Positions 6,052-33,827 of a stretch of DNA of 33,827 bases are shown piece by piece (within the stretch, counting starts at the first letter, position 1; each line of letters opens with the position of its first letter). Position numbers and translations under genes: made by a program. Origin of the DNA: a virus; the IMG/VR virus record IMGVR_UViG_3300031853_000169. One strand, 5' to 3'. Below the pieces are notes generated by a model. That model had not been told where the DNA came from. It did no database searches and was given only the letters and a program-made list of their open reading frames with translations.

Positions 6052-6066
6052 AACAGGAGGAATAAC

Positions 6067-7017
6067 ATGGATAAAGCAACACTTGAAAAGATAAATCAGT
6101 TTACACGCCGTGAATTTACGGAAGAAGAGCTGTATATCTTCCCTGTCAAACTTTGCGGAAATGAAATTGACCGTGACGGTGAATGCTTTTCAGATAATGC
6201 ACTTGAAAAGATGAAAGAACTGTTTATCGGCACAACTGTTATCTGCGACCATAATCCGAGTACAGATAATCAGACCGCACGTATCTTTGATACAGAGGTC
6301 ATAGCTGATGCCGGAGCTGTTACAAAATACGGTCAGCCTTACAAGTACCTCAAAGGTATGGCTTACATGGTGCGTACCGATAAAAACAAGGACATAATCA
6401 CCGAAATAGATGCCGGTATCAAAAAAGAAGTAAGTGTCGGCTGTTCAGATTCAAAGAGGATATGTTCTGTCTGCGGTTCTGAGGTCGGAGCTGAAGGCTG
6501 TCTGCATCAGAAAGGCAAGATATACGACGGCAAACTTTGCTATCATATTATTGATAACATAACAGATGCCTATGAATTAAGCTTTGTTGCTGTTCCGGCT
6601 CAGGCTGATGCCGGAATTACAAAGAAATACGAAACTAAAGGAGGAAATGACATGGAGAATACCTACACACAGGAACAGCTCAATGAAGCTGTAAAGGCTG
6701 CTGAAATGAAGTATGCAGGCTGGATATCTCCGGAAGATCACCAGAAAGCTATTGATATGCTTTCCGCTGAAAAGAAAAGCTCTGAACTCGCTCTGCTCAG
6801 GCTCAAAACAGCAAGTGAAACCGGACTTCCGTCCGAACTCGCTGACCGCCTGACAGGTTCTTCCGAGGAAGAACTGAAAAAGGATGCTGAAAAGCTCGCT
6901 TCACTTATCAAACCCGCACATCAGACACGCTCACGCTCGACAGAATCAGGCAGCGGACTTTCCGGAGTAGAAGCAGCTTTCTACGCTAAAAACCCCGAAC
7001 TCAGAAAGGAGAACTAA
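6067..7017 (+). CDS. Prohead protease (HK97 S78/U35-like) fused to a scaffold-like C-terminal region
   Basis: AGGAGG ribosome-binding site. The N-terminal DRDGECFSDNAL...VICDHNPS pattern resembles prohead proteases and contains a CSVCG...GCLH zinc knuckle. The C-terminal ~110 aa are charged and helical (ELALLRLK, EEELKKDAEKLAS). Confidence 0.7.
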   Translation: MDKATLEKINQFTRREFTEEELYIFPVKLCGNEIDRDGECFSDNALEKMKELFIGTTVICDHNPSTDNQTARIFDTEVIADAGAVTKYGQPYKYLKGMAYMVRTDKNKDIITEIDAGIKKEVSVGCSDSKRICSVCGSEVGAEGCLHQKGKIYDGKLCYHIIDNITDAYELSFVAVPAQADAGITKKYETKGGNDMENTYTQEQLNEAVKAAEMKYAGWISPEDHQKAIDMLSAEKKSSELALLRLKTASETGLPSELADRLTGSSEEELKKDAEKLASLIKPAHQTRSRSTESGSGLSGVEAAFYAKNPELRKEN

Positions 7018-7020
7018 ACT

Positions 7021-8127
7021 ATGGCACATGAAGCACAGGAAAGATATTCCGACCTTGTACTTGAAAAGCTCCGCAGTGAGCTTGTACTTGCAGACGGATT
7101 CGTTTTCAACAACGACTATGAAGGCAGCCCGAAAGCCGGAGCTGTAAAGATCCCGAAGCGTGATACAGAAGTACAGGTTTCCGACTACGACAAGGCTAAT
7201 GGAGCAACAGCAACAACAGGCTCTACAGAGTACATTACACTCACAATAACAAAGGACAAGGCAGTCAATGAGATAATTGACGGCTATGATGCAGAAGCCG
7301 TTCCTGATGATCTTGTGGCTGACAGACTCGATTCCGCAGGCTACAGCCTCGCACGCAGAATAGACACAGACGGCGGTTCCAAGCTCCTCTCTGAGGGTAC
7401 TGTTGTGAATATCGACTCTCTCTCAAAGTCGAACATCTATGATGCTATCGTTGATATCCGCAAGGACATGACAAAAGCCAATGTCCCGAACGACGGCAGA
7501 CGCTATCTCCTTGTAACTCCGGACGTATTCTCTCTTATTCTCAAATCTCCGGAATTTATCTCTGCATCTGATCTCGGAGATTCCGTCAAGCAGTCCGGAA
7601 TTCTCGGTAAAATCGCCGGTTTCCTTGTCAAGGAATGGAACGACGATACAGCAAATCTCGCCATGATCGCCGGACACCCTCGCTTTGCTACAAGAGTAAA
7701 AGAGTGGGACGTTCCGGTTCATATTCAGGACTTAAATGGTTCTGGTACGTATATCGGAGCTTGTGCTGTTCAGGGGCGTTTCGTATATGATCACAAAGTT
7801 CTCCGCAGTACAGCAGTACGCTGCGTATATGCTCCCGGAAGCCTCACAGCTTCTCTCGCAGCAGCCACAGGCGAAGGTGCTTCAGGCAAGACTGTTGTTA
7901 CCGTCACAGCCGGAAATACAGGCACTACATATGCTTACAAGGTAAATCCCTCCGAGAGAGCGACTTTCGATATGACTTCTTCTGCATACGGCGGAACTTC
8001 TCTCACCTCCGGAACGACAGCTATCGCTGTTTCTGCCGGTGATATCATCGAGGTCGTGAACCTCAGCTCATCGAAGGTCAAGGCTGTCACATATCTCACC
8101 GTTACAGCCTCAGATATAGCTGAATAA
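7021..8127 (+). CDS. Major capsid protein with a C-terminal Ig-like extension
   Basis: 368 aa, immediately after the protease/scaffold gene. The N-terminal ~270 aa resemble capsid proteins of Firmicutes siphophages. The last ~95 aa are T/S/G/V-rich beta-strand-like sequence. Confidence 0.8.
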   Translation: MAHEAQERYSDLVLEKLRSELVLADGFVFNNDYEGSPKAGAVKIPKRDTEVQVSDYDKANGATATTGSTEYITLTITKDKAVNEIIDGYDAEAVPDDLVADRLDSAGYSLARRIDTDGGSKLLSEGTVVNIDSLSKSNIYDAIVDIRKDMTKANVPNDGRRYLLVTPDVFSLILKSPEFISASDLGDSVKQSGILGKIAGFLVKEWNDDTANLAMIAGHPRFATRVKEWDVPVHIQDLNGSGTYIGACAVQGRFVYDHKVLRSTAVRCVYAPGSLTASLAAATGEGASGKTVVTVTAGNTGTTYAYKVNPSERATFDMTSSAYGGTSLTSGTTAIAVSAGDIIEVVNLSSSKVKAVTYLTVTASDIAE

Positions 8128-9635: not shown

Positions 9636-10142
9636 ATGCCAGAAACTATCGTACAGAGACATAAAATAGTAGCATTTTATGGTGTGACTACTGAAACAAC
9701 ATCAGGCGGAACTACCACCACAACTACTACTTTCTACAGAATGAAGAAATTCACTCAGACATCGAAGGCACAGAACCCTATAGAGTACAGCCGTCAGTAT
9801 GTTGATGAACCTTTTCAGCAGACAGATGTTGTGGGATATAATCCGTCGATTTCCTATGCTTTTGACAAGCACAGGAACAACCCTGTACTTGAAGATATCG
9901 TTGACATTACCAACAACGAAAAGCTTGGTGACGATGCAGTGAGAACTATCATCATCGTTGATACAGACAACGGTGAAGCTTACAAGCGTGATTATGCTGT
10001 TATCCCTAACTCAGAGGGCGACAATATCAATGTCTACACCTACAGCGGCACTTTCAAATGCAAGGGTGAGCTGATAAAGGGTACTGCCGCAACAACAGAC
10101 GACTATCAGACTATCACTTTCACCGAAACAGCAGCCGGTTAG
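9636..10142 (+). CDS. Major tail protein
   Basis: 168 aa with a GAGGAGG ribosome-binding site, positioned before the chaperone/tape-measure block. It is followed by a short GGGACT-gaaagc-AGTCCC hairpin at about 10147-10164. Confidence 0.7.
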   Translation: MPETIVQRHKIVAFYGVTTETTSGGTTTTTTTFYRMKKFTQTSKAQNPIEYSRQYVDEPFQQTDVVGYNPSISYAFDKHRNNPVLEDIVDITNNEKLGDDAVRTIIIVDTDNGEAYKRDYAVIPNSEGDNINVYTYSGTFKCKGELIKGTAATTDDYQTITFTETAAG

Positions 10143-10204
10143 GTAGCCGGGACTGAAAGCAGTCCCGAAGAACCAGAAGAACCAGCGGAACAGGAGGATA
10201 ATTC

Positions 10205-10558
10205 ATGAAATGGGATATAAGCGGCTTATCAATCAGTTTTGATATAACCGATGCAGTCAACGCTGAAAGATATGAGAAAGCTTACAAGAATCTGTCTGAT
10301 GCTAAGAACTCAATATCAAACTCCGGAATAATCTCTGACTATATTCGTTCATTCTGCGACATAATCAAGAGTTTCTTTTCGGACCTTTTTGATTCCGAAA
10401 CAGCCGATCTGATTTTTTATGATACTCCGGTAAGCATAAACGCATATGCAGAAGTTTATGCAGGATTCATAAGCTTTATAGAAAAACAGTTCGCCGAAAC
10501 AAGAAAACGTGCTGAAACGCTTCATAAGTATATCCCGAATGCTGAATCCTCTGTATGA
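10205..10558 (+). CDS. Tail assembly chaperone-position protein
   Basis: 117 aa, acidic, AGGAGG ribosome-binding site, located between the major tail protein and Gp15/tape measure genes. Confidence 0.5.
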   Translation: MKWDISGLSISFDITDAVNAERYEKAYKNLSDAKNSISNSGIISDYIRSFCDIIKSFFSDLFDSETADLIFYDTPVSINAYAEVYAGFISFIEKQFAETRKRAETLHKYIPNAESSV

Positions 10559-11120
10559 AAAATTCCCTGATTTTGTGAGAATAAACGGCAGAAAATACCG
10601 CATTATCACAGATTTCAGGGAATGGATAAGATTCGCAGATATGTTCTGCGACAGACAGCTTGCACCGGAGGAAAAACTCACACTTCTTGCGGCATGGTTC
10701 ATAGAAAAGCCGGAAATCCTGACTGATGAAACCATAGAGAAGCTTGTTGACTTCTACAAAGCCGGACTTCTTGAACCTGATACTCCCGAAGATGATGATT
10801 CCGGAGAAACACCGGAAGCGAATTCTCCTCCGGTGTTTGACTGGAAAATTGATGCTCGTTTTATCATCGGAGATTTCCTTCATTATTACGGAATCGACCT
10901 GCTTAATGCAAAGATGCACTGGTGGCATTTTCGCAGTCTGCTGACAGCTCTCCCCGAAGATTCGCAGTGCAAAAAACGCATGGCTTACCGTTCCGTAAAC
11001 CTTGGCGAGATCAAGGACTCAAAGGAACGGGCAAGGATTCTGCGTATACAGCGAAGTATTGCTATCCCGTTTGAGCTTGATGATGAAGATATAGGCGCAG
11101 TTTTCGGAAATTTTAAATAA
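10539..11120 (+). CDS. Bacteriophage Gp15-family protein (second tail-assembly protein)
   Basis: The N-terminus MLNPLYEKFPDFVRINGRKYRIITDFREWIRF matches my memory of Pfam Phage_Gp15. GTG 10509 is an alternative start. It overlaps the upstream ORF in the +1 frame. Confidence 0.6.
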   Translation: MLNPLYEKFPDFVRINGRKYRIITDFREWIRFADMFCDRQLAPEEKLTLLAAWFIEKPEILTDETIEKLVDFYKAGLLEPDTPEDDDSGETPEANSPPVFDWKIDARFIIGDFLHYYGIDLLNAKMHWWHFRSLLTALPEDSQCKKRMAYRSVNLGEIKDSKERARILRIQRSIAIPFELDDEDIGAVFGNFK

Positions 11121-11131
11121 GGAGGCTTGCT

Positions 11132-13552
11132 ATGGCTTTTGACGGCACGTTAAAATTCGATACAAAAATTGACGATTCCGGATTCAGCAAAGGTCTTGAA
11201 GCTATCGGGAATTTAGCCAAAAAGGGTATGGCTCTTGTAGCTGGTGCGACAGTTGCCGCTTCCGGAGCTATGGTTGCTCTCGGAAAATCTGCACTTGATG
11301 CCTATGCCGACTATGAACAGCTTACAGGCGGTGTCGAGACACTTTTCAAGACTTCTGCTGATGTTGTGAACGCTTATGCCGCTAACGCTTACAAGACTTC
11401 CGGACTGTCCGCAAATGAGTATATGGAGACGGTCACAAGCTTCTCGGCGGCACTTATCTCCTCGCTGGACGGAGATACTGCGAAAGCCGCTGAAATAGCT
11501 GACAAAGCAATAACCGATATGTCGGACAATGCCAACAAAATGGGTTCTTCTATGGAGTCCATTCAGACTGCATATCAGGGTTTTGCAAAGCAGAATTACA
11601 CCATGCTTGATAATCTGAAGCTCGGCTATGGCGGCACTAAATCCGAAATGGAAAGGCTTCTTGCTGATGCCGAAAAAATCAGCGGAATACATTATGATCT
11701 TGAAAGCTATGCAGACATCGTTGATGCTATCCATGTGATACAGACTGAAATGGATATTACCGGAACGACAGCAAAGGAAGCGGCTTCAACTATATCCGGA
11801 TCTGTGGGGATGACTCAGGCAGCATGGAAAAATCTTGTTGTCGGCATAGCTGACGATAATCAGGATTTTGACAAGCTGATGCAGGACTTTGTTGAATCTG
11901 CGACAGCAGCGGCTACAAACATTCTTCCGAGAGTTGAGATAATAATCGGTGGTCTTGGAAAACTTGTCAGCGGTATGGGTGATGTCCTTTCACAAGCTTT
12001 GCTTAGTATCACTGATATACTTCCGGAGCTTGTTTCTGCCGGTATTTCACTTGTGCAGACAATAGCCTCAGCAATATCCCAGAACTCTGACAAAATAGTT
12101 TCAGCAGCAATGGAAATAGGCATGACGCTGATAAAAGGTATGTCGGATATACTGCCTGTGATACATGATACCGGTTTGAATATCCTTGCATCACTCATTA
12201 AGGGGATAACGGCAAATATCGGTATGATCGCACAGCAGGCAGCTTCAACAGTAAAACAGTTCGCACAGATCATCATAACCAATGCTCCGGTACTGCTCGA
12301 AGCTGCCGCTGAACTTATAGCAGAGGTCATACAGGCTGTCACAGATGATCTCCCGGAATTTATTGAAACGGCGATAGAGGTCATATCGTCGATAGCACAA
12401 GCTCTGATCGATAATGCACCGATCATTATCGATGCGATCATTGAAGCTCTGCCGATGATCCTTGACGCTTTGCTTGATAATCTGCCGCTGATGATACAGA
12501 CGATAATGACTATCGGTGTGCAGCTTATCCAGTATATCCCGAAAATATTCGACCAGCTCATTATGATGCTTCCTGATCTGATAGGACAGATCATAGCTGC
12601 GGTCATAGACAATGCTCCGCTCATGCTGGAGGCTTTTACTGCACTGTTTTCGGAAGCACTCATCGCTCTCGGAGAAATGTGGAACAGCCTTTCTGCGGCA
12701 CTTGATGAGGCTATCGCAAAGATAGCAGAGTATTTCAGTATAGGATTCAGTGACATAAAAAAATTCTTCTCCGACATTTACAGCGAAATAAAAGAGGAGA
12801 TCTCAAAAACATGGTCTGCGGTCAAAAAATGGGGAGCAGACATGGTGAACAGTGCCGTGAAAACTGCACAGGATTTTCTTGATAATATCGTAAATTCCTT
12901 CGTGAAGATCCCGAACAAAGTCAAGGGATCGCTTTCGGACGCTTTTGATAAAGTTACCGACTGGGGCAGTAATATCATCAGCAAGATCACTGATATCGGC
13001 AAAAATCTTGTCAAGGGCATATGGGACGGTATCCAGAATATGAAGCAGTGGATAAAGGAGAGGATCCTCTCTTTCGGTGACGTTATCCTCGATTCATTCA
13101 AAAGCGTTTTCGGTATTCATTCACCGTCAGCCGTGATGCGTGACAGTGTAGGAAAATACCTCGCTCAGGGTATCGGAGTAGGATTTTCGGAGGAGATTCC
13201 GGAAGTCGGAAAGAACGCTCTGAAAGCCTTTGAAAGCCTGAAATTCTCCTCTCCGGAGATAGGATTCAAGGCAGTTCCGGAAATTGACAGCTCTGCATTT
13301 TCAGCATTGAGCAAGCAGAATCTAAGCATAGACAGCTCACTTGTACAGCCTGATATTTCCTCTGTGATAAACAATTACACGTATAACAGCAGTGCAGAAG
13401 CTCCTCAAAATCCGCAGGAAGTAGTCATAAATGCACATTTTTCTGTGGGTGAGGAAGTCGTTGCTCAGGGTGTAGGCAGAATACTCCTGAACGAAGCCGA
13501 TAAACAGCAGGGCATTGATATCCAGCTAAAGAAAAGAGGTCTGACAACATGA
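11132..13552 (+). CDS. Tape measure protein
   Basis: 806 aa with an AAGGAGG ribosome-binding site. It has a TP901-type core (AYQGFAKQNYTMLDNLKLGYGGTKSEMERLL) and a long A/I/L-rich helical repeat region. Confidence 0.9.
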   Translation: MAFDGTLKFDTKIDDSGFSKGLEAIGNLAKKGMALVAGATVAASGAMVALGKSALDAYADYEQLTGGVETLFKTSADVVNAYAANAYKTSGLSANEYMETVTSFSAALISSLDGDTAKAAEIADKAITDMSDNANKMGSSMESIQTAYQGFAKQNYTMLDNLKLGYGGTKSEMERLLADAEKISGIHYDLESYADIVDAIHVIQTEMDITGTTAKEAASTISGSVGMTQAAWKNLVVGIADDNQDFDKLMQDFVESATAAATNILPRVEIIIGGLGKLVSGMGDVLSQALLSITDILPELVSAGISLVQTIASAISQNSDKIVSAAMEIGMTLIKGMSDILPVIHDTGLNILASLIKGITANIGMIAQQAASTVKQFAQIIITNAPVLLEAAAELIAEVIQAVTDDLPEFIETAIEVISSIAQALIDNAPIIIDAIIEALPMILDALLDNLPLMIQTIMTIGVQLIQYIPKIFDQLIMMLPDLIGQIIAAVIDNAPLMLEAFTALFSEALIALGEMWNSLSAALDEAIAKIAEYFSIGFSDIKKFFSDIYSEIKEEISKTWSAVKKWGADMVNSAVKTAQDFLDNIVNSFVKIPNKVKGSLSDAFDKVTDWGSNIISKITDIGKNLVKGIWDGIQNMKQWIKERILSFGDVILDSFKSVFGIHSPSAVMRDSVGKYLAQGIGVGFSEEIPEVGKNALKAFESLKFSSPEIGFKAVPEIDSSAFSALSKQNLSIDSSLVQPDISSVINNYTYNSSAEAPQNPQEVVINAHFSVGEEVVAQGVGRILLNEADKQQGIDIQLKKRGLTT

Positions 13553-14265
13553 AAGCAGGGATTTCAGTAAACGGAAAGCACTCTTATCATTCCTTCGGAC
13601 TGCGAATGCTCAAACGCTCTGTAGGCTCTCCGCCGAAAGACGACCACACAGCAAGAGTGCCGTTCTCAAACATAACGTATGACTTTGACAGCGTTCTCGG
13701 ACGAAGCTACGGTGAAAGAACACTCTCTTACAAGCTGGAGCTTATCTGCTTCAATGTCCGTCATGCCCGTGACAGAATAATTGACATAATCAACTGGCTT
13801 CACTGGAACGACCGCCTTGACCTGACTGACGATATGTTTCCCGGCTATTATTTTGAAGTCCGTGAGCCGTCTGTTGAGTACAGTGAGTCTCACGGAGTAT
13901 ATACTTTCAGCATCGTATTCAAGGCATCACCGGAGATGAAAACGCTGCCGGAAGTACGAAAGTACAACGCATCTACGGTCACAGTTCCGGACATAAACGG
14001 CGACGGAACAGTCGATTCATCTGACGCATCTATCATTCAGGAGGCATATGCCAAGATCATCGCCGGGGAAGATACCGGACTTACTCCGAAGCAGTTGAAA
14101 GCCTGTGATGCAAATATGGACGGCAGCATTGATTCCGCTGATGCTTCTTTGGTCATGACATTTTATGCAGATGCGACTTCCGGAAAATATGCCGGTCTAA
14201 CCATTCAGCAGGCTTGGGCGGAATTTCTTACCGAACATTTTGAGACAGGAGATGATGTTCTGTAA
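13549..14265 (+). CDS. Distal tail protein (Dit, siphovirus tail family) with a C-terminal type-I dockerin module
   Basis: The ATGA overlap with the tape measure gene and the N-terminal ~130 aa are Dit-like. The C-terminus has two Ca-loop/helix repeats: DINGDGTVDSSDASIIQEAYA and DANMDGSIDSADASLVMTFYA. Confidence 0.75.
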   Translation: MKAGISVNGKHSYHSFGLRMLKRSVGSPPKDDHTARVPFSNITYDFDSVLGRSYGERTLSYKLELICFNVRHARDRIIDIINWLHWNDRLDLTDDMFPGYYFEVREPSVEYSESHGVYTFSIVFKASPEMKTLPEVRKYNASTVTVPDINGDGTVDSSDASIIQEAYAKIIAGEDTGLTPKQLKACDANMDGSIDSADASLVMTFYADATSGKYAGLTIQQAWAEFLTEHFETGDDVL

Positions 14266-16187
14266 TGTACGAAATAACCATTAAAAACGGCTCTGCTGCG
14301 GCTGTTCTTCACGACGGAAAGAATATCTTTGCATCAGCCGGAAATTTCACGGAAGAAGTCAACTGCATACCGTCAGCAAATATTGATATCCTGCGGAATA
14401 ATCTCTGCTGGGACTTGCTCCACGACAGGAAAACAGTTGTTGAGATAAGGAACATCATCGCTGATGAGATCGAGTTTGAAGGAACGCTCCTGCGGAGTAC
14501 CGACAAGATGACAACCTCCGGACAGGTCGTGAAATCGCTTATCTGCGAGGGATTTCTCGGATATCTGTGTGACAGTATACAGCCTTATCACCACTATGAA
14601 AACACCACCGCAGAAGCCTTTGTGGAAGCTCTCCTGAGCGTTCACAACTCCATGATGCCGGAGGAAAAGAGGATCTATCTCGGCTCTTGCGATATCGTCG
14701 GAGACACCGCCAGCAGCAAGACGACAGCCTACAGAAATACTCTTGAAGAGATCAAAGTCAATCTCCTTGACAGGATAGGCGGAGAAATCAGAATCCGGAA
14801 AGCTAACGGACGGCTTGTTCTCGACCTGCTGACGCAGTACGGAACGCAGACCAACACGACCATTGAGCTTGCGAAAAATATCCGTTCGCTCGAAGTTTCG
14901 TCCGATCCGGCGAACATCATCACACGGCTTATCCCGCTCGGCACACAGCTTGATGCTTCCGCTTCGGCGGAACGCCTGACTATAGCAGAGGTCAACGGCG
15001 GAAAGCTCTACATCGACGATGAAAACGCAATTGCAAAATACGGCATCATTGCCGGAACTGCGGTATTTGACAACATCACTATCCCGGCGAACTTAAAGAC
15101 AGCCGGTCAGGATTATCTCATAAACAATAACCGTGTCAAAAAGTCATACTCTGCAAATGTTCTTGACCTGTCCGTTCTTGATCCGTCAGAGCAGAGCATT
15201 CGTGCCGGAAATACCTACAGATTCAGGAATTCGTTCATCGGTCTTGACGAAGAGTTAAGACTGATGAAACGTAAAGTCAACATTTTCGAGCCGTATGCTC
15301 CGGAAGTCGAAATAGGCGACAAAGCCGAAAAAATGACTGATATTGCCGTCAGGACAGCTCAGCTCATAGAATACGAAATGCCAAAGCAGAAGCTTGATAT
15401 CCTTGCATCAGCAAAGGAAACAGCGACGGCTCTTATCGACGCAGGGATAAACGGCTATTGTGTTATCAATAAAAACGAGATATTAATTATGGATTCTCCC
15501 GACAAGGAAAATGCCGTCCATGTTTGGCGTTGGAACGCAGGCGGATTCGGCTACAGTTCCACCGGATATCACGGCACATACGGTACGGCAATCACTATGG
15601 ACGGTGCGATCGTGGCTGACTTCATCACCGCCGGAGTCCTGCGAGGTATGGAGATAATCAACGGAAACGGAACTTTCCATGTTGATACACAAGGAAATGT
15701 TACCGCTACAAGTATGAGCATCAACAATGGAAACGGCACATTTTGTGTTCTTCCAAATGGAACTGTTCAGGCTTCTGCTATTGAAATAACCGGCGGAAGA
15801 ATAAATATGACAACAAATTCGGCTAATTACGACGCTATAAGCCTTAGTTATCAGGATTTGAATACAGTTATGCGTTCAGGTGAATTTAAAGCTAAAAATT
15901 CCACTTCAAAGCATCAGATAGTTGTTCAGTCACAAGGACTGTGGGCTTGGAACGATTATGACGGTTCGCCAACATTTTCTGTCAGTTCGTCAACAGGCAA
16001 TGTCACAATAAGCGGAACTCTGACCGCAGAGGCAATAATTTTCAAACTGAACGGCACAAACAGCGGTCTTGAAGCTACCATAAACGGAATAAACAATTAC
16101 ATCGACGCAGAGGCTCGGATACTGAACGGCGCACTCGACAGCATCAGAGACCTTGACAGACGTGTAAGTGCATTGGAGGGGAACTAA
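14265..16187 (+). CDS. Tail-associated (Tal-like) minor structural protein / tail tip
   Basis: 640 aa with a TAATG overlap. The N-terminal region resembles the phage minor structural protein N-terminal domain (Prophage_tail type). Also present are an internal NGNGTF tandem repeat and a C-terminal coiled coil (LDSIRDLDRRVSALEGN). Confidence 0.75.
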   Translation: MYEITIKNGSAAAVLHDGKNIFASAGNFTEEVNCIPSANIDILRNNLCWDLLHDRKTVVEIRNIIADEIEFEGTLLRSTDKMTTSGQVVKSLICEGFLGYLCDSIQPYHHYENTTAEAFVEALLSVHNSMMPEEKRIYLGSCDIVGDTASSKTTAYRNTLEEIKVNLLDRIGGEIRIRKANGRLVLDLLTQYGTQTNTTIELAKNIRSLEVSSDPANIITRLIPLGTQLDASASAERLTIAEVNGGKLYIDDENAIAKYGIIAGTAVFDNITIPANLKTAGQDYLINNNRVKKSYSANVLDLSVLDPSEQSIRAGNTYRFRNSFIGLDEELRLMKRKVNIFEPYAPEVEIGDKAEKMTDIAVRTAQLIEYEMPKQKLDILASAKETATALIDAGINGYCVINKNEILIMDSPDKENAVHVWRWNAGGFGYSSTGYHGTYGTAITMDGAIVADFITAGVLRGMEIINGNGTFHVDTQGNVTATSMSINNGNGTFCVLPNGTVQASAIEITGGRINMTTNSANYDAISLSYQDLNTVMRSGEFKAKNSTSKHQIVVQSQGLWAWNDYDGSPTFSVSSSTGNVTISGTLTAEAIIFKLNGTNSGLEATINGINNYIDAEARILNGALDSIRDLDRRVSALEGN

Positions 16188-16526
16188 ATGATTACTTTTT
16201 ACGATAAGCTCCCGGATATGGAATGTCTCGCCGGTGACACGCTCCCGACTTTCACGGTCGAAGTCGAAGCTGACAGTCTTTCCGGCTGTACGATGCAGAT
16301 CATAGTTGCAAAGTCCTCAGACATAACCTCGGCTGTTATCTGCAAGGAATGCGAAGCGGTCGAGGGCGGATTTGCTGTAACTCTCACCAGCGAAGACACA
16401 CAGGAGCTTTCCGAGGGTGCGTATATGATACACTTCCGGCTGATAGGTGCGGACGGATTCAGCCGGAGAAAGCTCGCAGGCGACCTCTACATCGTGGGAG
16501 CTGCCAAAGGAGATGATGTCTCATGA
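16188..16526 (+). CDS. Small tail-tip protein, possibly an Ig-like (BppU-N/DUF2479-like) fold
   Basis: 112 aa; its ATG directly follows the Tal stop. The pattern AGDTLPTFTVEV...LTSEDTQELSEGAYMIHFRLIGADG resembles phage Ig-like baseplate domains. This is weak recall. Confidence 0.4.
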   Translation: MITFYDKLPDMECLAGDTLPTFTVEVEADSLSGCTMQIIVAKSSDITSAVICKECEAVEGGFAVTLTSEDTQELSEGAYMIHFRLIGADGFSRRKLAGDLYIVGAAKGDDVS

Positions 16527-17278
16527 AATTCAGCATATCAGATAATATGAAGTTCTCCGCTGATATCAAAAACATGAAATTCGGAATGAATGTCGGATAT
16601 GTCCAGCCGCAGAAAAACGGTGTCGGTCAGGCAGTAGATTCGGCGGTCAGCGGAAACGCAAGAATAGGAATATCAGGCAGTGCATTGGTTTTGCCCTGGG
16701 TGTATACTCAGGAAACAGATGATAATGCGAAAATATCAGCCACTCTTACGATAAATCCGACTGCTGACTGTCTGCTGGTTGTGGCTGCTATGAGCCGTTC
16801 GGAAGCTTCGGTTTCCGGTGACGGCTGGACGAAGATCACATCAGGAACAGTGACACTTTCTCAGAGAATAACAGTCTGGTACAAGAAAGTATCTGCCGGA
16901 ACGCATACTGTGACCGTCACTCTGACCGACAATGCGAGAATGAGCCTGAAACTGCTGTGCATTTACAATGCCGAAAGCCTGACGGAAGTTGATAACATAG
17001 TCGCTTCAAGTGTGCCGATAAATCCGACAGCAACGACGACAAAGCGTAGGTTGTATTTGTTATCGAGTGTATATGCTTCAACAGACGGAACACCTGCTGC
17101 TGTCACGGTTTCTGATAACGGTGTGGCTTTAGAAGCTGCCGAGGAACTTCGTTTTTCTGCGTTTTACGATGATGAACCTGAAAGTGGAGTAACTCCGACA
17201 TTCGGCTATTATAGCAGCAATTACACAGCAAATTCTATCAACATGATCTCTTTTGATATTGAGGAGGCAACTACATGA
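16523..17278 (+). CDS. Hypothetical tail-tip protein, receptor-binding candidate
   Basis: 251 aa with ATGA coupling. Beta-rich sequence; no family recognised. Confidence 0.45.
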   Translation: MKFSISDNMKFSADIKNMKFGMNVGYVQPQKNGVGQAVDSAVSGNARIGISGSALVLPWVYTQETDDNAKISATLTINPTADCLLVVAAMSRSEASVSGDGWTKITSGTVTLSQRITVWYKKVSAGTHTVTVTLTDNARMSLKLLCIYNAESLTEVDNIVASSVPINPTATTTKRRLYLLSSVYASTDGTPAAVTVSDNGVALEAAEELRFSAFYDDEPESGVTPTFGYYSSNYTANSINMISFDIEEATT

Positions 17279-17979
17279 GCATATCGGTTTTTTCACAGAG
17301 CAGAACAAAAGATATGTCTGTTCTTAAAGCGTTCCTTGACGAAAACAAAGCAGGGACTTTCTTAGAGGACGCAACGCTTGAACTATCGACAACAGCGGTC
17401 GAAAATGACACACTGACAATTACTCTCGGTGATTCTCAGCTTAAATTAGCGGCTACAGCATCAGGTAACTATAATGACATCGAATACACCGGAAGCAATA
17501 TGACAGTTTCGTTCAAGGGTAATGACGGATACGGAGGATCATATCCGTATATCTCGAAGCTCATGTTTTGCAAAAATGGCATCGTATTTGAGTATATGAG
17601 AAGGAATACCGGTGACTCTGCTTACGGCACAGAACATATCATATATCCTGTTGCTGTTACTGTGGACAGTGCCGGAAATCTTGCGATGATATACTGGGGA
17701 ATAAATGGTTTGTCTGTAGCTAATGCCTATACATCGAACATTTACTATGCTGTAACATACAGCAGTATTTCTGTATCTGCTGTTACAGTGATCCCTCAGA
17801 ATTCCGCACAGTTTACATCGCTTGCACCTATAGTTGCAAACACCAGTGATAATGCTGTATCTCTGCCGTATGCTTATGCTGCTGTACATCAGCAGGTCGC
17901 CGGTCTTGGTCTGACAAAAGTCGTCATGGACGGAACGTACTATATAACTAACGGTCTATGGTACATCAAGGACGAGTGA
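17275..17979 (+). CDS. Hypothetical tail-tip protein, receptor-binding candidate
   Basis: 234 aa with ATGA coupling. It is the last structural ORF before the lysis genes; no family recognised. Confidence 0.45.
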   Translation: MSISVFSQSRTKDMSVLKAFLDENKAGTFLEDATLELSTTAVENDTLTITLGDSQLKLAATASGNYNDIEYTGSNMTVSFKGNDGYGGSYPYISKLMFCKNGIVFEYMRRNTGDSAYGTEHIIYPVAVTVDSAGNLAMIYWGINGLSVANAYTSNIYYAVTYSSISVSAVTVIPQNSAQFTSLAPIVANTSDNAVSLPYAYAAVHQQVAGLGLTKVVMDGTYYITNGLWYIKDE

Positions 17980-23495: not shown

Positions 23496-23543
23496 ACAAT
23501 TATACTGCTTAAATACTATCATACAAAAGGAGGAATGTCAAGC

Positions 23544-24599
23544 ATGAAAACATTAGAAGACCTCAACCTGAGCGTCAGGGCTTACAATGCAGTCAGGAGG
23601 TATGGCATCGACACGGTAGAGGAACTTTCTGAGCGGATAGATGAATTCAGCAATCATGCACCGAAGTACGGAGCAGAGGCAAGGAAGGCTCTCGAAGCTT
23701 CTGCTCTTCCGCAGATAGTAGAAAGTCCGGAGTATACAAGAGCTGTCGCCTTGCATCAGAAAATATGCACCAGTGCGGAGCTTGCACAGCAGAATCTTTA
23801 TGAGATGTGCAGAGGACTGAAAGAAATGCGTGACGAGAAGCTTTACAGGGAAATCGGATATCAGAATTTCGAGAACTACTGTAAAGCAGAGTTCAACATG
23901 ACAGACAGAAGTGCAAGGAACTATATTGCTATTATTGAAAATTTGTCAGAAGAAAACCGGAAAACGTTTTCCGGTTTGCAAGCATCAAAGCTCTTTCTCC
24001 TCGCAAAGCTCGACGAGCCTCAGAGAGAGGAGATTCAGCAGGCTGTAAACGTGGAGGAAGTCTCCGTCAGGGAGCTGAAAAAGCAGATAGCTCAGCTTGA
24101 AAAGGATCTCAAAGATCAGCAGGGAAACTATGCTATGCACACTAAACGCCGTGAAGATGAGATCGCCGGTTATAAAGAACGCCAGGACAAACTGCTCACC
24201 CGGAATAAAGAGCTTGTAAATGAACTGGAACGGACTGAAGAAAAACTGGATCAGGCCGAGAACGATCTCGATGAAGCCAATGAGACGGTGCAGAGCCTTT
24301 CACGGCAGCTTGAAGAACTCGAATCCCGTCCCCGTGACAGCTATGAGGATACTACCAAGATCGAAGAACTGAAAAAACAGCTTGCAGAAGCTGAACAGCG
24401 TGCCGGGGAAGCTAACAGGTCTGCGTACAGTGACAACGCTGTATTCAATGCGTATGCGTCAGCGGCTACAGATGCTATGCGTCGCCTTACTCAGTTTTGT
24501 GAGCAGCACAGCAGCAGCTCTGAAAAGACTGTATTCGTCACCAAGTTAAAAATGATCGTAACGCTCACCGGGCAGACGATAGAAAAATTAGGAGGTTAA
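23544..24599 (+). CDS. Protein with an N-terminal RNA polymerase alpha-CTD-like HhH domain, a DUF3102-like middle region and a long coiled coil
   Basis: LEDLNLSVRAYNAVRRYGIDTVEELSE closely resembles the bacterial RpoA C-terminal domain motif. Next comes KLYREIGYQNFENYCKAEFNMTDRSARNYI, then about 150 aa of coiled coil. AAGGAGG lies 10 nt before ATG 23544. Confidence 0.6.
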   Translation: MKTLEDLNLSVRAYNAVRRYGIDTVEELSERIDEFSNHAPKYGAEARKALEASALPQIVESPEYTRAVALHQKICTSAELAQQNLYEMCRGLKEMRDEKLYREIGYQNFENYCKAEFNMTDRSARNYIAIIENLSEENRKTFSGLQASKLFLLAKLDEPQREEIQQAVNVEEVSVRELKKQIAQLEKDLKDQQGNYAMHTKRREDEIAGYKERQDKLLTRNKELVNELERTEEKLDQAENDLDEANETVQSLSRQLEELESRPRDSYEDTTKIEELKKQLAEAEQRAGEANRSAYSDNAVFNAYASAATDAMRRLTQFCEQHSSSSEKTVFVTKLKMIVTLTGQTIEKLGG

Positions 24600-33595: not shown

Positions 33596-33827
33596 CACTT
33601 GATGAAGCAATAGCAAGGCTGAACGACAAGCATAATCACACGCTTGTTTTTAACCCGAAACAGCTCGCAGGACTTCTGACAGGACTGAAAGAGCTGAGAG
33701 AAGAAAACAAGGATTGGAAAGAAGAATATGCATATATTAACAAAGTCAGTTACGGCTATTACAAAGAACTGAAAGAAGCAAAGCGACTTCTGAAAGCGGC
33801 GGTTGAGGATTTCAGGATATTAGGAAC
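33592..33827 (+). CDS. 5' part of the junction-spanning hypothetical protein (ends at 269 after circularisation)
   Basis: ATG 33592 overlaps the upstream stop (ATGA). The frame stays open to the window end and continues into positions 3-269. Confidence 0.6.
   Translation, partial: MTLDEAIARLNDKHNHTLVFNPKQLAGLLTGLKELREENKDWKEEYAYINKVSYGYYKELKEAKRLLKAAVEDFRILG
33701..33827. repeat. Second copy of the 127-bp end overlap
   Basis: Identical to 1-127. Confidence 0.95.

Follow-up and report, generated by a model that had tools for sequence, protein, structure and literature searches.

What is a dockerin doing at the tip of a phage tail? The question is raised by one open reading frame (ORF) in IMG/VR virus record IMGVR_UViG_3300031853_000169, a stretch of 33,827 nucleotides that is referred to here, at its full length, as the window. 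The ORF (13549..14265, + strand; 238 aa plus stop) lies between the genes for a tape-measure protein (TMP) and a tail-associated lysin/tip protein (Tal). In an initial annotation its product was proposed to be a distal tail protein (Dit) that ends in a type I dockerin, by which the phage would use the cohesins of cellulosome scaffoldins on a Ruminococcus-like host as its primary receptor or as an enrichment matrix. An ORF call and a six-frame pattern scan place the ORF and both of its calcium-binding loops exactly at the coordinates claimed. The analysis described below leaves next to no doubt that this is a real dockerin on a real Dit. Its nearest relatives are the group-4 dockerins of Ruminococcus flavefaciens, and the combined evidence suggests that it would act as an adhesin for a cohesin on the host cell surface.

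The N-terminal half of the protein (the ring, or hub, domain; aa 1–130, 13549..13938, + strand) was identified as a Dit from its ring fold, from its matches to known distal tail proteins and from the position of its gene, and not from a sequence hidden Markov model (HMM). Indeed, Pfam Sipho_tail (PF05709) scored 18.2 bits against the window protein, below the cut-off of 24.2 bits, and matched six of 52 relatives at E ≤ 0.01, the best at 1.7e-6. In an AlphaFold2 model based on 52 homologs, with a mean predicted local distance difference test score of 84.9, residues 1–135 fold as a Dit ring. In Foldseek comparisons the modelled ring matched solved tail proteins with root mean square deviations (rmsd) of 2.0–2.8 Å over ∼135 residues and E values of 4e-9 to 1e-6, among them the monocin tip (9j1k_K, 4e-9), TP901-1 (4v96, 8e-7) and the SPP1 Dit (2x8k, 9e-7). 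Many BFVD models named 'distal tail protein' matched as well, with E values down to 3e-11, and tblastn aligned residues 4–130 with 'distal tail protein' genes of Streptococcus and Latilactobacillus. Moreover, the gene stands between TMP and Tal in the window and at every locus with flanks examined. Together, these data bear out the Dit-like identity proposed initially.

The C-terminal part is separated from the ring by a linker (aa 131–147; 13939..13989, + strand) that is variable in sequence, with high column entropy, and has no regular secondary structure in the model. The linker ends in an invariant Pro-Asp, P147 and D148 being unchanged at the junction with the first loop throughout the homolog alignment. 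The dockerin module itself comprises residues 148–230. Pfam Dockerin_1 (PF00404) reaches 44.9 bits (E = 1.3e-11) over residues 148–203, where the gathering cut-off is 22.9 bits, and all 52 aligned family members pass the same HMM. When the pattern of a dockerin calcium loop was searched, in strict or loose form, in the six reading frames of the 33.8-kb window, the only matches were loop 1 (DINGDGTVDSSD, aa 148–159; 13990..14025, + strand; ligands D148-N150-D152-D156-D159) and loop 2 (DANMDGSIDSAD, aa 187–198; 14107..14142, + strand; ligands D187-N189-D191-D195-D198). These carry the putative recognition dyads Ser157-Ser158 and Ser196-Ala197 respectively.

The predicted fold of the C-terminal part runs loop-helix, short helix, loop-helix and fourth helix. 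In the model, loop 1 leads into helix 1 (aa 157–172; 14017..14064, + strand, by DSSP), which aligns to the ScaH dockerin of R. flavefaciens, and loop 2 leads into helix 3 (aa 196–210; 14134..14178, + strand). Between them the model and the alignment place a short connecting helix 2 (aa 180–186; 14086..14106, + strand) with an invariant Q182. Thus the paired F-hands proposed initially are supported by the HMM and are reproduced in the predicted structure, which also matches a solved ScaH dockerin. The protein was said to end in the two loop-helix segments; both are present, but a conserved, predicted fourth helix (aa 219–230; 14203..14238, + strand; motif AWAxFLN, with W223 nearly invariant) comes after them, followed by a short C-terminal tail (14239..14262, + strand) that in the alignments ends x-[GE]-V-[YILF].

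Next, the subtype of the dockerin was addressed. In a Foldseek comparison the predicted model superposed on the ScaH dockerin 8ajy_B with a target-normalised template modelling (TM) score of 0.80 and an rmsd of 2.2 Å over 81 columns, covering 81 of the 84 residues of 8ajy_B, at a sequence identity of ∼28–32%. The same ScaH dockerin was the best solved structure in a single-sequence search (E = 2e-7). When a profile of the family's dockerin module was scored against solved dockerins, ScaH (group 4) again came first with 54.4 bits, followed by the best of the Clostridium thermocellum type I dockerins (Xyn10B, 2ccl_B; 36.8 bits), the CttA XDoc (group 4; 33.3 bits) and the R. flavefaciens dockerins of group 1 (31.4 bits), group 2 (26.8 bits) and group 3 (20.5 bits). 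By sequence, profile and fold, therefore, the closest relative is the group-4 dockerin of ScaH, and group-4 dockerins are classed in the field as type III (Israeli-Ruimy et al.). The call of a 'type I dockerin' was thus right as to the dockerin, 'type I' being the name of the Pfam model only, as the scores of 54.4 bits for ScaH and 36.8 bits for the best type I module make clear.

Other features are in keeping with this kinship. The two repeats of the window protein are identical at 11 of 22 positions (50%; the family median is 45%), and group 4 has been described as the only group with symmetric repeats (Rincon 2010). An extra helix 4 has been described as distinctive of group-4 dockerins (PMC12270676), and the fourth helix predicted here may correspond to it. 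In an exhaustive phmmer search over 1.8 billion representatives, the closest cellular dockerins (∼50% identity) belonged to proteins with BspA-type leucine-rich repeats (LRRs), transglutaminase-like, RCC1 and NPCBM domains and not to glycoside hydrolases; a word-indexed search with the dockerin only had found a single fragment. LRR-dockerin and transglutaminase-like-dockerin proteins are parent architectures of group 4b (Rincon 2010). Among the cellular proteins, two secreted ones from metagenomes have dockerins with the same DSSDAS/DSADAS signature as the window protein.

The pattern of conservation over the 52 aligned homologs separates the calcium loops from the presumptive binding surface. 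In loop 1, D148, G153 and D159 do not vary and N150 and D152 change only between N and D; in loop 2, D187, A188, G192 and D198 are invariant. Every calcium-ligand position is either invariant or restricted to D, N or T. The adjacent dyad positions 157 and 158 have entropies of 2.3 and 3.0 bits. In type I complexes, positions 10, 11, 14, 17, 18, 21 and 22 of each repeat contact the cohesin. When columns were grouped in this way, mean entropy was 0.60 bits for calcium ligands, 2.18 bits for cohesin-contact positions and 1.01 bits for all other positions (Mann–Whitney p = 5e-4).

The variable positions also change in concert between the two repeats. Loop position 11 is the same in both repeats in 28 of the 52 proteins, against 7.6 expected, with seven residue types among the matches, and among 38 distinct loop pairs taken from the loci it is identical in 19, against 5.6 expected. 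Positions 7, 10 and 14 also co-vary, whereas helix positions 15, 17, 18, 21 and 22 do not, a difference that speaks against simple gene conversion between one repeat and the other. A dual-binding mode has been demonstrated for group-4 dockerins, and the co-variation favours selection for two equivalent faces, that is, for a putative dual-binding surface that tracks a variable partner.

The fusion is not a singular oddity of the one phage in which it was first noted. In a protein search, the same architecture was found in ∼53 protein clusters of 234–245 aa (one of 288 aa), some of which are labelled R. flavefaciens or Ruminococcus sp., and at least 57 IMG/VR contigs carry the fusion at identities down to ∼31–34%. 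Several observations agree with the Ruminococcus-like host suggested initially. The window protein falls into the same 90%-identity cluster as a protein from a Ruminococcus sp. metagenome-assembled genome (MAG), a scan of genomes located the fusion in R. flavefaciens FD-1 and in two Ruminococcus MAGs, and one homolog lies on a 739-kb contig adjoining a GH9/CBM4 cellulase. The FD-1 copy (10001–10705 of locus L001, ACOK01000073.1, at ∼33.3–34.1 kb of that record) is part of a prophage of ∼36 kb. It is probably among that strain's 223 'dockerin-containing proteins', for which Table S1 of Rincon 2010 gives ORF numbers arranged by group; phage are never mentioned in that catalogue. The family also occurs in human-gut data (protein P0014 of loci L063 and L062; Human Microbiome Project sample SRS053335 and MAG GCA_900761275.1), and its range thus extends beyond the rumen.

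Where flanks were examined, the gene order is TMP, Dit-dockerin, Tal, a ∼110-aa protein, variable genes and lysis. Some members of the family have holin and lysin genes directly after Tal, which leaves the Dit-dockerin and Tal as the sole candidate adhesins in those phages. Across 64 loci, paired calcium loops are confined to the Dit gene apart from one match at locus L022, which is a 477-aa secreted host protein with an N-terminal dockerin (6064–7497 of the locus, − strand). At that same locus a truncated Dit-dockerin (residues 13–237) abuts minus-strand host genes and not a TMP gene; it belongs to a degraded prophage within a dockerin-encoding host.

The fusion was found by tblastn in none of 50,697 deposited phage records, the matches being to the ring domain only. 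A sole deposited 'phage' match to the dockerin region, MT836339.1 (1730–3079 of locus L066), was rejected because the gene encodes a secreted LRR-dockerin protein and not a phage structural protein. This unverified 'Bacteriophage sp.' record from human faeces has a CCA-adding enzyme and a HAD hydrolase flanking the gene, and that part of the scaffold looks bacterial and not viral.

Is the dockerin needed to build the tail? Two ring-only Dits of 141 aa (P0055 and P0056), both 63% identical to the ring domain of the window protein, occur in phages that are syntenic with the dockerin-bearing ones. One such phage (locus L065) shares 89% identity in the major capsid protein, 73% in TMP, 67% in Tal and 63% in the Dit ring with its dockerin-bearing relatives, and it keeps otherwise the same tail genes, including Tal and the 110-aa protein. 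The existence of this sibling indicates that the dockerin is an accessory that is not required for tail assembly. The 141-aa Dits close with a similar EVI or GVI ending, from which we infer that the dockerin was inserted ahead of a conserved C-terminal tail. The claim that the dockerin serves as the 'primary receptor' binder gives way, in light of the sibling, to that of an auxiliary adhesin, and it is unlikely to be the sole or primary receptor binder of the virion.

According to the published view, the dockerin proteins of ruminococci have a signal peptide. The Dit-dockerin has none (its maximal N-terminal Kyte–Doolittle hydrophobicity is 0.10, against 2.0–3.2 in cellular dockerin proteins), and its dockerin can thus reach cohesins only on the released virion. 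Solved Dits have their C-terminal domain on the outside of a hexameric ring (PMC7291167). Since Dit rings are hexameric, by homology six dockerins would be displayed around the tail tip of each virion, with the ring domain retained as the tail-tip hub and a dockerin of group-4 type (ScaH/ScaB/CttA-like) in place of the peripheral galectin-type domain.

The best reading of these data, to which we would assign a probability of about 0.6, is that the six dockerins of a virion bind in a calcium-dependent and multivalent manner to a cohesin on the surface of the host cell. Each dockerin would fold on meeting extracellular calcium and would present two near-symmetric faces. The interactions of group-4 and group-2 dockerins have affinities of ∼1e6–1e7 M−1; affinity per site would accordingly be modest in the virion too, and avidity high. 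A reversible first contact of this kind would keep the tail tip at the wall, after which Tal and, where present, a separate receptor-binding protein (RBP) would make the binding irreversible and see to the delivery of the DNA. The dockerin may be more important in those phages whose tail modules are minimal.

That the Dit-borne dockerin binds some host cohesin is, on the sequence evidence, probable. Which cohesin it binds can be suggested more tentatively. The 8AJY structure is that of the CohScaE–DocScaH complex. ScaE is covalently linked to peptidoglycan, and group-4 dockerins, including those of non-cellulosomal proteins, reach the cell surface through it (PMC12270676). Because the nearest relative of the phage module is the group-4 dockerin of ScaH, the likelier target would be a sortase-anchored, ScaE-type cell-wall cohesin, which normally tethers the cellulosome and other proteins with group-4 dockerins, and not cellulosome scaffoldins in general, as had been proposed at first. 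Such a target also makes more sense for a phage. Nevertheless, ScaE is a provisional choice with somewhat less than an even chance of being correct, and group-4 dockerins, as assayed with proteins of FD-1, bind the ScaH and ScaG cohesins besides that of ScaE (Israeli-Ruimy et al.).

A number of points weigh against cohesin-mediated adsorption through ScaE. Everything beyond the presence of a dockerin on a Dit is something that we infer. Helix 4 is a prediction only, and the sequence profile aligns to the ScaH dockerin through helix 3 and no further. The p-values for co-variation are indicative only, since the shuffles ignore phylogeny. The group-4 dockerins of FD-1 have a Gly-Arg dyad at loop positions 10–11 that is required for ScaE binding, and the window dyads are Ser-Ser and Ser-Ala. 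Dyads of the Gly-Arg type are found in one subfamily of the Dit-dockerins, which includes the FD-1 prophage copy (Asn-Arg/Gly-Arg) and P0022 (Gly-Arg/Gly-Arg). In closeness to the FD-1 ScaH dockerin over the whole module, the FD-1 prophage dockerin ranks only 24th of 52; a comparison at the level of the repeats modestly favours its subfamily as the closest to the ScaH dockerin. The ScaE cohesins of living cells normally already hold dockerins, those of ScaB and CttA among them, and access would therefore depend on exchange or on avidity. Finally, virions in a lysate could be trapped on cohesin-bearing debris, which would be a cost to the phage.

Of the other explanations, niche retention survives best. 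The dockerin might bind non-anchoring cohesins (those of ScaA, ScaB, ScaC, ScaH or free scaffoldins) on plant fibre or biofilm and so concentrate virions near hosts without positioning them at the wall. A parallel exists in the Ig-like capsid domains that have been proposed to retain phages in mucus. Such a role would sit well with the additional binding of group-4 dockerins to ScaH and ScaG cohesins and with a dockerin that the basic tail can dispense with; the dyads are so diverse that partners may differ between phages, and two further tail proteins of the window could be the true receptor binders. Decoration domains for matrix binding, however, usually sit on the capsid or tail tube, whereas this module is part of the tail-tip hub. 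Its closest relatives are the surface-targeting dockerins of group 4, not the enzyme-type dockerins of groups 1, 3 and 6 that load onto ScaA, ScaB and ScaC, and shed cellulosomes, if bound, would act as a decoy. Niche retention is for these reasons considered improbable.

Slightly less probable again is that the domain does not bind cohesin at all, the F-hand pair being a calcium-dependent structural or sensor module that stabilises or triggers the baseplate, or binding some other ligand. Calcium-dependent activation of a baseplate is known from lactococcal phage p2 (entry 4v5i is titled 'Activated Conformation with Ca'), and 12 of the 52 family members also match EF-hand models. Dockerin-like domains are, in addition, widespread outside cellulosomal organisms, where a non-cohesin ligand is suspected. 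Yet all hosts identified for the family belong to Ruminococcus, in which cohesin systems are elaborate, and the closest relatives of the module are dockerins with demonstrated cohesin binding. Moreover, a pure calcium sensor would need neither hypervariable cohesin-contact positions nor matched changes on both faces.

The dockerin could also work within the virion, plugged into a cohesin-like domain of Tal or of an RBP, much as the 'arm and hand' of the p2 Dit holds its RBP. C-terminal domains of Dits do anchor RBPs in p2 and 80alpha. A phage-encoded cohesin was therefore sought in four ways, and none was found. The tail ORFs of the window gave no match to the Pfam Cohesin HMM even at E ≤ 10, and 96 representative downstream proteins from 65 loci gave none at E ≤ 0.01. 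A 234-aa tail protein that is described below has no cohesin-like fold match, and PDB sequence searches with a 251-aa ORF and with the C-terminus of Tal returned no cohesin, these last two proteins having been checked by sequence alone. Furthermore, the dockerin-less sibling has the same Tal and 110-aa protein, and the dockerin stays constant across phages whose genes 3' of Tal differ widely. An internal assembly role is thus very unlikely.

That the fusion is an artefact of misassembly, frameshift or prophage decay with no place in a working virion, as the deletion product P0149 (below) and the truncated L022 copy beside host genes might suggest, is excluded by the breadth and conservation of the family, with the intact 234–245-aa architecture in ∼53 protein clusters and 57 independent viral contigs, by its invariant calcium ligands, and by a complete window whose ends overlap by 127 bp and which has full modules for head, tail, lysis, lysogeny and replication.

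P0149 (963–3947 of locus L106) is a 994-aa TMP that ends in a dockerin. It was considered as an independent graft and rejected, as its contig reads Gp15, TMP-dockerin and Tal with no Dit gene, and as the protein continues straight into a Dit-dockerin's dockerin, helix 4 and tail. When viral contigs were scanned with P0149, every match was to an ordinary TMP gene with a separate Dit-dockerin gene after it. P0149, which is known from a single contig, is most simply explained by the loss of the TMP C-terminus and the Dit ring through a deletion in a prophage undergoing decay.

Multivalent adsorption to a surface cohesin, as favoured here, has its nearest parallel in the evolved Dits (evoDits) of Lactococcus, Lactobacillus, Streptococcus and Bacillus siphophages. 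Like the Dit-dockerin, these are hub proteins encoded between TMP and Tal, and they bear an accessory module at the ring periphery that is present or absent among close relatives. The evoDit modules promote adsorption and bind the host to which the bona fide RBP also binds (PMC7291167, PMC10688798). They are, however, carbohydrate-binding modules (CBMs), often of the BppA fold, that are inserted in loops of the galectin domain and bind cell-wall saccharides. The Dit-dockerin has neither a galectin domain nor a CBM, its C-terminal part is all helical, its predicted receptor is a protein, and its module mimics a protein of the host. By analogy of function it might be called an 'evolved Dit', although, with no galectin domain and no CBM, it fails the structural definition.

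Classical Dits such as those of SPP1 (gp19.1), TP901-1 and p2 share the ring domain and the TMP-Dit-Tal position at only 11–14% identity, and have a C-terminal galectin or OB-fold domain where the Dit-dockerin has its dockerin. In the minimal Dits (the lambda gpM type, and here P0055 and P0056) the ring alone is a complete Dit, without the ∼95-residue dockerin insertion. On the side of the host, the group-4 dockerins of R. flavefaciens (those of ScaH, ScaB, CttA and peptidase-dockerin proteins, among others; PDB 8AJY and 4IU2) have in common with the phage module the symmetry of the repeats and, as regards its closest cellular relatives, parents that are not carbohydrate-active enzymes; the fourth helix predicted for the phage module may be a further shared trait. 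They differ in that the parent of the phage dockerin is a cytoplasmically assembled virion protein without a signal peptide, and in the Ser-Ser and Ser-Ala dyads of the window protein.

In the searchable literature no paper was found that connects dockerins with phage tail proteins or with cohesin-mediated adsorption, and in this respect the view that the mechanism had not been characterised stands. Two phage papers that mention dockerins deal with other matters: that on Escherichia coli phage HSE2 concerns a CBM-like structural similarity, and that on Vibrio phage VvAW1 concerns a BLAST hit in a non-structural gene. Recognition of the domain is not in itself a novelty, since NCBI automatic annotation already labels one homolog a 'dockerin type I domain-containing protein'.

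To our knowledge, the receptors of phages that infect the main fibre degraders of the rumen and human colon are essentially unknown, and we know of no Dit-borne adhesin so far that binds anything other than carbohydrate. A dockerin on the tail hub offers a concrete, testable receptor hypothesis. The published cohesin and dockerin constructs for FD-1, the microarray and enzyme-linked immunosorbent assay (ELISA) platforms, those for isothermal titration calorimetry (ITC) and the CohScaE structures are all applicable to the FD-1 prophage, which makes the finding one of real interest. If adsorption by way of cohesin is confirmed, a protein–protein 'plug' would join the Dit-borne adhesins, and this would be the first cohesin–dockerin interaction to serve viral entry. 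The contact dyads could then be used as a sequence-readable marker of host range in rumen and gut viromes, engineered particles might be targeted by the same route to cellulosome-bearing bacteria, and phage pressure would be linked to the strain-level diversification of cellulosome assembly modules. For annotation, it means that some ruminococcal 'dockerin-containing proteins of unknown function' are prophage tail proteins and not components of the cellulosome.

Taken to its full extent, the proposal would be that these phages mimic the docking system of their hosts. The Dit dockerin would copy group-4 dockerins and plug into a ScaE-type cohesin as a first receptor, possibly the main one where the tail module is minimal, its contact residues would co-evolve with strain-specific cohesins, and phage predation would be one driver of cohesin–dockerin diversification in ruminococci. 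This extended model is speculative, and is put forward with less assurance than the ScaE assignment taken by itself.

The genome that encodes the window protein is that of a temperate siphovirus of ∼33.7 kb. An exact direct repeat of 127 bp (positions 1–127 and 33701–33827) identifies the window as a complete, circularly assembled phage genome. Its head and structural genes include a portal, large terminase, scaffold, major head protein and tail completion proteins, and it also encodes an M15 endolysin, a serine integrase, a CI-like repressor on the minus strand and a replication module.

Directly 5' of the Dit-dockerin gene is that of the 806-aa TMP (11132..13552, + strand; phrog_58 and other TMP families, E = 8e-83), and directly 3' is that of the 640-aa Tal (14265..16187, + strand; Pfam Prophage_tail, 1.3e-27; phrog_3558, 1.5e-102). 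Tal is followed by a conserved 112-aa tail-module protein (16188..16526, + strand; phrog_1084), assigned by synteny and by membership of a cluster that spans 19 loci at 50% identity; a protein of ∼110 aa occupies this place in nearly all Dit-dockerin phages.

The next two genes encode candidates for receptor-binding proteins. A 251-aa tail-module protein (16523..17278, + strand), a candidate receptor-binding or accessory protein, falls into no Pfam or PHROG family. It has a weak PKD-like match (E = 0.013), gave no match in a PDB sequence search, and at 50% identity clusters with no other downstream protein of the 65 loci. The 234-aa protein (17275..17979, + strand) is predicted to be all-beta (AlphaFold2 predicted TM score 0.85) and has 31 homologs of 215–236 aa. 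Its model found no PDB fold match below E = 0.05, and it is a candidate receptor-binding protein with what may be an undescribed fold. In many Dit-dockerin phages, similar-sized proteins that end '...Y.TNG.W.IKD' come after Tal and the 110-aa gene.

Elsewhere in the family the variable tail genes take other forms. At loci L031–L035 and L045 (∼6.6–16.5 kb), and at others, a second Tal-like gene of 640 aa and one for a 934-aa protein lie downstream. Among representative tail-module proteins, BspA-type LRR domains occur in four (E down to 7e-62) and YadA-head repeats in one. From their sequences, the LRR, YadA-head and second Tal proteins may be alternative adhesins.

A tRNA scan of the window found none, and the composition profile of the window showed no anomaly at the dockerin region. 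In the early region, a 354-aa protein (23535–24599, + strand) matches at its N-terminus (E = 4.5e-7) the alpha-subunit C-terminal domain of RNA polymerase, and a similar match to this domain is seen at the end of the dockerin-less sibling locus, L065.

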